Positions 21,766-24,924 of a stretch of DNA of 64,000 nucleotides are shown here, in pieces. Position 1 is the first letter of the stretch. Every line of letters starts with the position of its first letter. Source of the DNA: Cladosporium halotolerans (taxonomy: Eukaryota). Below the pieces are notes generated by a model. That model did no database searches. It had not been told where the DNA came from and saw only the letters and a program-made list of their open reading frames with translations. The DNA is taken from positions 744,001-808,000 of the forward strand of contig NW_027191458.1 in the NCBI RefSeq assembly GCF_011745625.1, read 5' to 3'. Made by a program: the position numbers and the translations under genes.

Positions 21766-22303
21766 GATGGCGTAGGACTTTTTGTCTTTTTGGGCAGGAA
21801 GTGACTGATGGGCGATGATTGAATGTTCGGCTTGGGTTGTGGTAAAGGAGATTGATGAATGGGAGATGGGCCGATCGATCTGGGTGAAAGCGGCGTCAGG
21901 ATTTTGCTGGCGGCTGCATTCACTGTGGCTGGGTAGTGAATTTGTTAGTGAAGTTTGGCAAAGCTGGGGAGTGCGAGAAAGATGGGTGGATGCGCGCGAT
22001 ATAAAGAATATGATGTGGTGAGAAAGATTGTCGGAGCCTTTGCTAACAAATGCGTTCTTTATAAGGAAAAAATCTTTTGGTGAGCATGTATCTTGATCAA
22101 CTTTTAGTATCATGTCGCGTAACGGTGTCGCTAAGGTGCCTAGAACAAGAAATGAATCTAGCCAGCATCTATGCCAAAAGGGCTTCTAACCACCTGTAAG
22201 CATGGCCGCCCCAAAAACACTGGATATCAACGCAAAGAAAAACAGAGGCCTGGTGTTCGACGAAAGGGTGGAGGTGTACATCGCCGGCTGGCAAGATAGT
22301 CTC

Positions 22304-23875
22304 CTACTTCTCGCTCTTGAGCGTCGGGAGCTCCTTCACGGCCTCGGCGATGATCTTCAGGGCAGTCTTGATCTGGTCCTCGTCGATGACAAGAGGCGGC
22401 GCGAGACGGATGATGTTCTGATGGGTGGGCTTGGCCTGCGGAGGAAACGTTATGTTAGCGTCAGGTCGATCGACGGAGGTCGCAGTCGTGGCCCTCTCCT
22501 CAGCAGCCGCACCAGTGTGTCCAGTAGTTCCGGACCCTATGGTGGGGTCTATGGGCTCCATGGACACAGTTGGCAGGGCAGCTGAGGTAGTGGAGGACTT
22601 GAAATGAGCGATTTTGAGGGCACGGCCTACCAGAAGTCCCTTCTCCTTCATCAACATGCACAGATCCCACGCACTGTGGCCACCGGTCTTCGACTCGTCG
22701 ATAATGATGGCGTTGAGCAGACCCTTGCCACGGATGGTGGTGATCATGGGGTCTTGCTTCTGGATGTCGCGCAGGCCTTGACGGAAGATCTCGCCGAGGC
22801 GCTCGGCACGCTCTGTGAGTTGCTCCTCTTCCACGATCTCGAGTGCCTTGATAGCCACAGCAGAGCCCAGAGGGTTACCGCCGTATGTCGAGCCGTGGGT
22901 GCCGGGCTCGATGGTGAGCATGACATCCTTCCTGCCGAGGACGCAGGACACAGGGTACATGCCACCAGAGATAGCCTTGCCGAGCAGGACAATGTCTGGC
23001 TTGATGCCTGACCACTCGTGGCAGAGCAGCTTGCCGGTTCTGGCGATACCAGTCTGGATCTCGTCGACCATCATGAGGACATTGTGCTTGTCGCAGAGCT
23101 GGCGCACACGGCGCAGGTAGTCCTCGTCGGGAACCACAATTCCAGCCTCGCCCTGAATGGGCTCGACAAGGAACCCAGCAACCTCCTTGCCGTGCGCCTC
23201 GAAGGCAGCCTCAAGCGCCTCGACATCGTTGTAGGGAATCGCCTTTCCAGTCGCCGGGCAGTAGGCGCCGACACCAGGCAGGTAAGGGCCGTAGTTCTCT
23301 CTGCTCTCGGGATCGGTCGACATGGTGATCGCCGCGAAAGTCCTGCCGTGGAAGTTCTCCTGGACGCTGAAGACCAGTGCCTTGTCCTTGGGGATGCCCT
23401 TACTCTTGTAGCCCCACTTGCGCGCGATCTTGACGGCGGTCTCGACGGCCTCGGCGCCGGTGTTCATGGGCAGCACCATGTCGAAGCCGGTCATGCTGGT
23501 GATCTTCTCGGCGAACTTGGGGAAGACATCGTTGTAGAATGCTCTGCTGCTGAGCGTCAGACGGCTGGCTTGGTCCACGAGCGCCTGGATCAGCTTCGGG
23601 TGGCAGTGGCCCTGGTTGACGGCGGAGTAGGCAGAGAGGAAGTCGAGGTAGTGCTTGCCCTCGGGATCCCACACGCTGCATCCTTGCGCTTTGGCGAACA
23701 CAATGGGCAGAGGGTGGTAGTTGTGCGCGGCGTATGCGGCCTCAGAGGTCATAGCCTCTTTCGATGTGGAAGCATGGTATGAGGAGGTTTGGGTGGGCGG
23801 TGTGAATGTGGCAGCTTTGGCATTGAGGTTGCTGTCGACGCCATTGCCGTTTGTCTCGACCGCCATGGGTGCCAT
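22304..23875 (-). CDS. car2: Ornithine aminotransferase, class III PLP-dependent (intron 22436-22630)
   Basis: Motifs [63 protein letters not shown] (PLP Lys), [30 protein letters not shown] is restored by removing GTAGGC..GCTAAC..CAG. Confidence 0.97.
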
Positions 23876-24153
23876 GTTGTGCGGTTGTCGGAAGATACAA
23901 GTAGAGTGAGCGCCGGCGTGGGGTAGTGGAGGGGTAAATGCTGGGGATATCGGTGAATTATTGGCGCGAGGAACACGTGGGAAGTTTGAGTGAATCTTAT
24001 CGCGGAGAGAATCAAGGAAAATGAACTGGACGGCGGGTTGATCGCCAGATCTTATACCACAGGCGACGGGCGAGGGCGACAGAACTCAACCACGGCGTGG
24101 GCGATGGCAAACGGGCCCCTCCCCACCGCGCGGCAGCCAATCGCGGAGGATTT

Positions 24154-24236
24154 TGGTTATACCTGCGCTTAAGGAATGTCGTCTGGCTATTCCTGCGCTT
24201 AGGAGGCAGCGAGATGGCTCGGCCTGCACTTAGGGG
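24154..24236. promoter_or_regulatory. Three tandem degenerate copies of TGGYT-N3-CCTGCRCTTA(A)GG at 30/31-bp spacing upstream of car2
   Basis: tggttatacctgcgcttaagg (24154), tggctattcctgcgcttagg (24184), tggctcggcctgcacttagg (24215). Adjacent CCAAT (~24137) and a CreA-type CCCCAC (24121). A regulatory role is inferred. Confidence 0.5.
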
Positions 24237-24924
24237 AATTCGTATGACTTATATCAACCCCTAGACTTTCTCGCCCGGATACGCTCGCGATAGTCATGTG
24301 CCCGTGGCTCCACCATGACCGCGCCGCTTAGTCGCGGCAATCTCGTAATGTGTGATTGGGCGGTTGCGCCGCGACGCTGCGGTATCGCCGGCGAGAGTCT
24401 TCTGGTCGTTGTTCTACCTACGCCGTCTGCGCTGGCCTGCGATTCTCACGTGCGAGCCGACATCAAGGTGTACTACTCTGCCCGGCCGTGGCCTCACCCA
24501 CGCCCATGCAGGTACCCAGCAAATCAGATCATCTCTGCATCCCCAGACATCACATTCTGGCCACACGAGGATTCAAGCCACCCGTTGCACGACTTGGCTT
24601 GCTGGTGAGCCGCACAAGGGTGGCCATAAGCCGCCGGCATTTTCGCCGAGGTCGCTCGGACACCAATGCTGGAATAACAACTCTGGCAAACGCTGAAACG
24701 CAAGCATCACAAAGCGTACAGCACTACAAATGGCATGTGAGGCAAAAACGCAGGTGACCGCCCTCGCCACGGAATCCCGGTGTTAAGGGGAGACTCGGCG
24801 AGGGGGCCTAAAAGACGCCGCTGGGATTCGTTCTGGCCCGCCAATATGACCATCCAGTCCATCGAAATACGGTCTAGTGGTTGATTATGCGTTCCGTTTC
24901 GTTATGAAATGTGTGTAAGGAGAG

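Follow-up and report, generated by a model that had tools for sequence, protein, structure and literature searches.

The ornithine aminotransferase (OAT) gene of Cladosporium halotolerans lies on the minus strand of the 64,000-nucleotide (nt) window analysed here (contig NW_027191458.1, positions 744,001 to 808,000), and the sole intron in its coding region occupies positions 22436–22630 of that window. Comparison with relatives suggests, and on balance we think it probable, that this car2/otaA-type gene of a Cladosporium-like Dothideomycete carries an exitron-like, frame-preserving intron that is translated when left unspliced, and that the hairpin peculiar to its lineage acts as a zipper stem. 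On this reading the orthologous introns at the codon boundary KGLL|AKPTH would form an old family held under two constraints together. The first would act on the splice signals, namely the initial GT with a G at position +5, a CTRAY branch site that lies in frame and a terminal NAG restricted to CAG or AAG, and the second on the open frame, which would be kept at a length divisible by three (3n), free of stops, and furnished with the motifs VGRALKIAH(V/L)K at its start and TSLLDQ/NTFDRP before the branch site. Some transcripts would escape splicing and be translated, to judge from the comparison, and the retained form would be an OAT with a mostly disordered loop of 20–69 residues, placed nine residues before the arginine of IIRLAPP, which we take to be the substrate-binding residue of the enzyme. 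In the Cladosporium-like lineage the intron would have grown by ∼100 nt, the extra piece being a hairpin that probably serves splicing geometry and not metabolite sensing.

The encoded protein scores 678.5 bits in a profile search against TIGR01885 (Orn_aminotrans, a class-III aminotransferase family), whose curated equivalog cut-off is 378.4, and the nearest solved chains are of the OAT type (5viu, E 6e-147; human 1oat/2oat, E 1.7e-139). Its frame runs from stop to stop between 24085 and 22304, with the start codon likely at 23875. Residues 41–415 of exon 1 align with solved OAT-type chains, e.g. 5viu and 1oat, while exon 2 aligns with residues 384–418 of 5viu, directly after residue 383 and with adjacent flanks (...NGLL|AKPTH...). 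Solved OATs are thus devoid of an insert at the intron site, since residues 383 and 384 of 5viu are contiguous across the junction.

Four public sequencing runs were compared with positions 21900–24400: X7 and X16, which are RNA on record, X4, of unknown kind and with a depth of 652, and X13, which is DNA-type. RNA contigs cover exon 1, and one contig each from X7, X16 and X4 joins 22434 to 22630, skipping exactly 195 nt. The skipped segment bears CT..AC ends on the plus strand, which are GT..AG on the gene strand, and the resulting junction is the canonical KGLL|AKPTH of OAT; the intron is spliced, and the spliced mRNA encodes canonical OAT. From the relative represented in X13, a DNA-type contig spans 22086–24400 with 57 differences and no gaps, so that the intron of this relative has the same length as that of the window.

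The element has the make-up of a spliceosomal GT-AG intron (a GT donor and a CTRAY branch site 10–25 nt from a YAG acceptor), with a GC content of 0.59 against 0.57 for the window. It has no stop in frame 0, four in frame 1 and three in frame 2. The original prediction, made from the letters of the window, had pointed to a 195-nt, 3n, stop-free intron at this place, and both the sequence and the length skipped by the contigs bear this out; translation likewise agrees with its statement that retention would add 65 Thr/Ala/Ser-rich residues after KGLL, as the read-through product passes from ...KEKGLL through an insert rich in T, A and S (...DANITFPPQ) into exon 2. The further idea of a normal and an insertion isoform is a reasonable one, in that the frame-preserving property is real and selected. 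A stop-free frame 0 arose in 478 of 5000 dinucleotide shuffles, and with a factor of 1/3 for 3n the chance is ∼3 per cent, nothing unusual for a single intron among those of a genome, so that only the comparison with relatives exceeds chance.

Searching protein databases with the read-through frame brought up many proteins of ∼500–545 amino acids (aa) that likewise read through the intron site. Eight of the nine residues of VGRALKIAH are invariant in an alignment of 27 of them, and the ninth is kept in at least 90 per cent. Named Dothideomycetes with the insert are Cladosporium, Elasticomyces, Friedmanniomyces, Aureobasidium, Myriangium and Sphaceloma, and other named carriers are Lithohypha (a Chaetothyriales Eurotiomycete) and Pycnora (a Candelariomycete). 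Because the first query contained the insert, the search was repeated with ranking on exon-1 residues 320–415 alone, and 120 listed proteins (90 produced by open reading frame (ORF) callers and 30 from NCBI/nr) were classified at the junction: splicing is seen in 29, 76 read through the site, and the other 15 end or shift frame. The 16 spliced proteins among the 90 ORF-caller entries presumably derive from transcripts, since plain ORF callers cannot choose splicing. Within the ORF-caller entries, segments of the VGRALK type stay open as far as AKPTH in 54 proteins and are closed in 2, and the variants VGQALK, VGRTLK, VGRALR and VGRTVH are open in 4 of 4, which brings the whole VG type to 58 open of 60. 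The open inserts vary from 20 to 69 aa, with 29 different lengths in all. Of the 14 ordinary introns of the GTAAGT type found at this position, whose reading begins VS or VR, just 1 is open. The Fisher test, computed on 54/2 against 4/14, returns p = 7e-10, a figure that is indicative only, since the sequences are related. Conservation of the 3n, stop-free state among orthologues, which had been put forward as a check on the idea of retention, is found in 58 of these 60 VG-type ORF-caller proteins.

The simplest reading of these comparisons is that the VG-type segment is sometimes removed and sometimes translated across these lineages. Pairs of spliced and unspliced proteins from the same species were not recognisable among the database proteins, the best pair being 91 per cent identical. 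Lineages of the GTAAGT type include P0122, P0130, P0134, P0139, P0145, P0157 and P0175, together with loci L073–L080, and some of them hold remnants of the motif (VSQSLKIY, VSRALELLL; at the DNA level in L074 and L080). Repeated loss of the peptide-coding state seems, from these sequences, to have accompanied the gain of a strong donor. Public annotation of the gene is inconsistent across Dothideomycetes; among the 30 NCBI/nr proteins in the sample the insert is carried as though it were constitutive coding sequence in 16 and spliced out in 13.

At the DNA level, the set consisted of the best 80 of 155 tblastn relatives from one metagenome scan, plus the window. The orthologous segment measures 51–111 nt in 74 of these 81 and 195–207 nt in 7, and the 61 distinct sequences divide into 54 of the VG type and 7 of the ordinary type, the latter with stops in 4. 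Over the first 27–30 nt of the 54 VG-type sequences, change falls almost solely at codon position 3, apart from exchanges of Arg CGN/AGR and Leu CTN/TTG, and in codons 1–9 positions 1 and 2 are almost fixed while position 3 is free. Such near-purely synonymous change argues for selection on the peptide, not on an RNA motif. As read from the aligned sequences, the window and L001 differ by 5 synonymous and 0 replacement changes in the first nine codons. In the long group as a whole, diversity over the first ten codons is 0.07/0.00/0.22 at the three codon positions, and indels among the long versions remain 3n. Turnover in the second motif is of the synonymous type, Arg switching between CGA and AGA and Leu between TTG and CTA among other changes. 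We rejected antisense coding as the source of the codon pattern, because the variable sites are third positions of the sense frame.

The splice signals of the VG type are held beyond what codon usage or the peptide would need. The 5' sites of the 54 sequences are GTAGGA (22), GTAGGC (13), GTGGGC (9), GTTGGT (4), GTCGGT (3), GTAGGG (2) and GTAGGT (1), so the first codon is GTA in 38 of 54, as against 7 of 134 Val codons (5 per cent) in the flanking exons. For the last codon, 38 sequences have CAG and 16 have AAG; CAA and AAA do not occur there, although the flanking exons use them at 23 and 34 per cent, respectively. In the interior of the insert, with the first and last codons set aside, the two kinds are nearly balanced (CAA 12 vs CAG 12, AAA 50 vs AAG 58). 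Neither GAG (a poor acceptor) nor TAG (a stop) occurs in the last position among the 54. In 53 of 54 the final 45 nt contain a CTRAY branch motif; its codon register does not vary, and in it the motif reads (A/T/S)(N/D). The segment in the window combines several of the marks of exitrons: a 3n length, an open frame, coding flanks in the same frame and coding-type evolution in its two motifs.

Structure prediction with AlphaFold2 offers a view of what the retained form might look like. The read-through protein of the window, modelled with 76 close relatives, reached a mean predicted local distance difference test (pLDDT) score of 69, with the insert below 50, and is uninformative. The short-insert homologue P0062, modelled with 132 sequences, reached a mean of 91 with the OAT fold kept. 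In this second model V-G-R extend the strand that follows GLL (block 411–420, pLDDT 95), residues 424–429 and 435–442, which comprise much of the insert and the start of AKPTH, fall below 50, and NIIRLAPP is back in place. The second model is compatible with a folded OAT that carries a surface loop near the substrate-binding arginine.

The long versions of the intron (195–207 nt) are confined to the window and L001–L006, and all seven share a long imperfect hairpin, which is essentially the piece by which long and short versions differ. The insertion is old, since it is common to seven diverged orthologues at one site. The window intron has a minimum free energy (MFE) of -69.2 kcal/mol against a shuffle mean of -55.4 (standard deviation 4.5; z -3.04); an equally good fold arises in 2 of 200 shuffles. 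Across the seven long versions z ranges from -1.8 to -3.8, whereas the 54 short ones (51–111 nt) have a median of +0.2 with 2 of 54 below -2. In the alignment of the long versions the consensus holds 41 pairs, and 92.3 per cent of the cells are paired against 86.8 per cent in shuffles (0 of 500 reach the observed value) and 27–40 per cent in slid controls. Ten pairs are compensatory, with both sides changed, a count that 1 of 500 shuffles reaches; covariation among orthologues, the other check that had been suggested, is accordingly present among the long versions. The window is only 51–67 per cent identical to the other long versions in the hairpin region. Diversity there is roughly equal at the three codon positions (0.34/0.25/0.28), which argues that the middle of the intron is constrained as RNA structure and as open frame, not as peptide. 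The apex sequence ..UGGAUCCGGA.., which encodes GSG, is conserved among the long versions, and the conserved structure as a whole is a single long imperfect helix that lacks a conserved multi-way junction.

The stems named in the original prediction are there: CCUCAGC/GCUGAGG (22581–87 with 22498–504), UGUGUCCA/UGGACACA (22561–68 with 22516–23) and the apical GACCC/GGGUC. Its proposal that the GAGGGC arm has alternative partners holds in part, as GUCCUC and GCCCUC are both possible partners in the window, and the MFE fold of the window uses GCCCUC beside the 5' splice site, but the GCCCUC pairing is absent from the consensus of the seven long sequences. A second, smaller stem, at ∼22470–22483 (alignment columns 157–170) around the palindrome TCGATCGA, is found in the stretch that separates the hairpin from the branch site. 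It has 5 pairs, 2 of them compensatory among the seven long versions, and overlaps the DRP-coding motif.

There is reason to think that the hairpin is a candidate zipper stem through which splicing would stay efficient in an intron that has grown. [quoted passage not shown] With the hairpin closed, the linkers of the seven long versions come to 46, 64, 41, 57, 75, 64 and 94 nt, so that the range of 41–94 nt matches the natural range of the unstructured short orthologues, and it is this match that suggests the zipper role. For the window the linker is 46 nt with the outermost admissible pair (11–139) and 85 nt with the core (44–133), both inside the 42–85 nt expected of zipper stems, as are the linkers of 5 of the 7 long sequences. 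The purely spliced contigs are consistent with a hairpin that aids splicing.

Several observations weigh against this account of a translated intron with a zipper stem. A retained-intron transcript was not seen, all junction-crossing contigs of X7, X16 and X4 being spliced; the contigs of these runs have no cover within 22488–22571, and because contig assembly drops rare variants a minor retained form may be missed, so that the lack of unspliced contigs only bounds retention. The whole case for translation of the retained form accordingly comes from comparison between sequences. All 80 loci and the window hold a 3n segment of 51–207 nt, but the ranking by which the best 80 of 155 were taken favours in-frame cases, and for this reason the loci were not used for the frequency of frame-keeping, for which the sample of 120 proteins provides the unbiased argument. 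Two VGRALK-type ORFs (P0143 and P0146) end inside the insert and one VG-type DNA sequence (L067, with a 69-nt segment) has an in-frame stop; we regard these three as infrequent natural cases in which a VG-type segment has lost its open frame. AlphaFold2 gives no confident structure for ALKIAH, conserved though it is. The hairpin evidence comes from 7 related sequences in ∼3 lineages, and related sequences can beat all shuffles without structure. Two of the seven linkers (41 and 94 nt) lie just outside the 42–85 nt of yeast, limits that were modelled on the Saccharomyces cerevisiae spliceosome, and the same source has disruption of the RPL28 zipper stem lowering retention (PMC12350175).

Other explanations of the hairpin and of the open frame have to be set against these data. 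The original prediction had gone on to propose a switch in which the hairpin, responding to arginine, ornithine or polyamine much as a thiamine pyrophosphate (TPP) riboswitch responds to its ligand, chooses between splicing and retention. Such a switch would be suited by a hairpin that is real and conserved, by the plausibility of two isoforms and by the ability of GAGGGC in the window to pair with GUCCUC or with GCCCUC next to the 5' splice site; yet the contigs at the junction are all spliced, and the pairing at the 5' splice site is missing from the consensus. An E-value scan of 21800–24400 against Rfam, at E up to 10, gave no match in the intron to a riboswitch, small nucleolar RNA, transfer RNA or microRNA family (the lone match in that range is a chance mir-593 in exon 1, with 22.4 bits against a gathering score of 100), and one long helix with neither an aptamer nor a conserved multi-way junction is what remains, so that gating by a ligand finds no support. 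Gating by structure fares little better: 47 distinct VG-type orthologues of 60–111 nt keep the frame and the peptide motifs equally well while having no notable structure, and for that reason isoform choice cannot depend on the hairpin in general. It had been conceded beforehand that short, unstructured or frame-disrupting orthologous introns would tell against the proposal, and the orthologues are mostly short and unstructured, which counts against structure gating, and are not frame-disrupting, which favours the idea of isoforms. We consider a ligand-responsive switch very improbable. The hairpin might have another role as RNA, either in tuning retention through temperature or a helicase or as a small-RNA precursor after release of the intron. 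A stable helix of ∼100 nt with compensatory changes and a conserved apex would fit, but no microRNA family in Rfam matches the intron and a zipper stem explains the geometry more simply, which leaves this role improbable too.

If the hairpin has no function, it might be the relic of a palindromic insertion (MITE-like, i.e. resembling a miniature inverted-repeat transposable element, or derived from template switching or an introner) in an older short intron of which only the frame and the splice signals are selected. Such an origin would agree with the difference between long and short versions, which is essentially the hairpin piece, with the lack of peptide-level constraint in the hairpin region, and with the long, structured, multiplying introner-like elements known from Dothideomycetes (PMC3879977). 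Neutral decay, however, should break the helix, and arms that are 51–67 per cent identical between lineages still pair at 92 per cent with 10 compensatory pairs; in addition, neither the intron nor its hairpin part has a second copy in the 64-kb window or the 80 loci (blastn, word size 9). We hold a functionless relic to be unlikely. The open frame, for its part, could be that of ordinary, never-spliced coding sequence in most relatives, which became a constitutive intron in the lineage of the window and there retains the coding signature as an inherited relic, with no insert isoform being produced. Only spliced contigs are found in the species of the window and its close relatives, 16 of 30 NCBI/nr proteins annotate the insert as coding, and the GTYGGT donors and AAG acceptors look weak, each of which would be in keeping with this history. 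Against it, the GTA first codon, the NAG last codon and the in-frame CTRAY exceed codon usage in short and long versions alike, and the long, demonstrably spliced lineage still changes only synonymously in its first nine codons and keeps its indels 3n. This explanation is, in our judgement, unlikely as well.

A bolder extension of the favored reading, that of a translated exitron-like intron with a zipper stem, is that at least three fungal classes make two OATs from one gene and that the Cladosporium-like hairpin sets the ratio of splicing to retention, possibly in response to temperature or a helicase. We think this unlikely as a whole. Were it true, the retained VGRALKIAH...TSLLDQ loop next to the substrate-binding arginine could alter regulation, partners or specificity of the enzyme, and an intron at once structured, protein-coding and regulated would pack three overlapping codes into 195 nt.

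Coordinates of the OAT gene, its intron and the elements within the intron (positions in the window)
Feature	Position	Strand	Remarks
OAT coding exon 1	22631..23875	minus	415 codons; ATG at 23875-23873; ends ...KEKGLL
OAT coding exon 2	22304..22435	minus	ends ...TLKSEK, then TAG at 22304-22306
Phase-0 GT-AG intron	22436..22630	minus	195 nt, 3n, stop-free; 65 codons if retained
5' splice site GTAGGC	22625..22630	minus	doubles as codons Val-Gly
Conserved peptide VGRALKIAH	22604..22630	minus	first 27 nt of the intron
Conserved long hairpin	22493..22592	minus	columns 39-147 of the alignment of the seven long versions (A2); arms 22498-22530 and 22555-22587; apex ∼22531-22554
Second peptide motif	22460..22480	minus	TSVDRPD in the window; relatives have NTFDRPN or TSLLDQ; lies right before the branch site
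Branch site GCTAAC	22454..22459	minus	in frame reads Ala-Asn; intron nt 176 is the branch A, which lies 19 nt before the intron end
3' splice site CAG	22436..22438	minus	doubles as the last insert codon, Gln

Two further features were seen at the ends of the gene. The OATs of relatives run ∼20 residues beyond ...ELPxLKGKKE, into a conserved tail DEVLPAGEKHLEPVLEN that is followed by the stop. In the window the in-frame TAG at 22304–22306 removes this conserved C-terminal tail (22169–22306, minus strand), of which a remnant downstream of the TAG is still recognisable (ETILPAGDVHLHPFVEHQ...), although the usual stop is missing. Either the TAG arose by a recent nonsense mutation, or stop-codon read-through may take place here. 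At the other end, a little upstream of the ATG at 23875 (23893–23951), several short contigs of run X4 and one of 977 nt touch only 23904–23933 and then run on into sequence absent from the window, leaving a loose end at 23904. This break may be a splice junction in the 5' untranslated region or mark an alternative first exon.

Fungal intron retention is mostly regarded as noise that is cleared by nonsense-mediated decay. Stop-less 3n introns are moreover reported to be counter-selected (PMC2911113). The OAT intron would run contrary to this, in that an open frame, two peptide motifs and splice signals are preserved together in a core enzyme of nitrogen metabolism. Since the lineages with a consensus donor, in which the frame is closed in 13 of 14, form a natural control, translation of a retained intron in fungi becomes testable on one gene. 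The hairpin would likewise be a candidate zipper stem outside the budding yeasts, and a system in which to examine the trade-off between intron length and structure in short-intron fungi.

Among known systems, exitrons offer the closest likeness in the coding sense. The OAT segment is an internal GT-AG segment that is coding when retained, 3n, stop-free and removed in frame, and it shares with exitrons a non-consensus donor, an exon-like GC content and a mostly disordered product, as these are characterised in the portion of the source available (PMC4484396). In that same portion, exitron-containing transcripts are the major isoform and at least some exitrons stem from ancestral coding exons (Marquez et al. 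2015, PMC4484396). In the case of OAT, by contrast, the spliced form is the one seen in RNA and is the canonical enzyme, and the site is an ordinary intron position in the GTAAGT-type lineages, with the frame closed as given above. [quoted passage not shown] They differ in that the OAT host is a filamentous ascomycete with orthologous introns of 51–111 nt and in that the OAT stem sits within a frame-preserving intron, because of which the hairpin must itself remain 3n and stop-free.

Two other kinds of intron invite comparison. In the TPP-riboswitch introns of fungi (NMT1/THI4) structured intron RNA controls splicing. The OAT intron resembles them as a structured RNA within an intron of a fungal metabolic gene, with a possible influence on the use of splice sites, but has no aptamer, Rfam match, conserved junction or unpaired core, and its structure is missing from most orthologues. 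Introner-like elements are reportedly a feature of Dothideomycetes, as described by van der Burgt et al. in 2012 (cited in PMC3879977). The OAT intron shares with these elements a length above the usual and a stable fold in a Dothideomycete, and departs from them in its ancient position, common to several classes, in its preserved frame with conserved peptide motifs, and in its single copy in the material searched. Retention of a fungal OAT intron, or a fungal OAT exitron, was not described among the papers listed in searches of the literature, with subscription journals lying outside the coverage.

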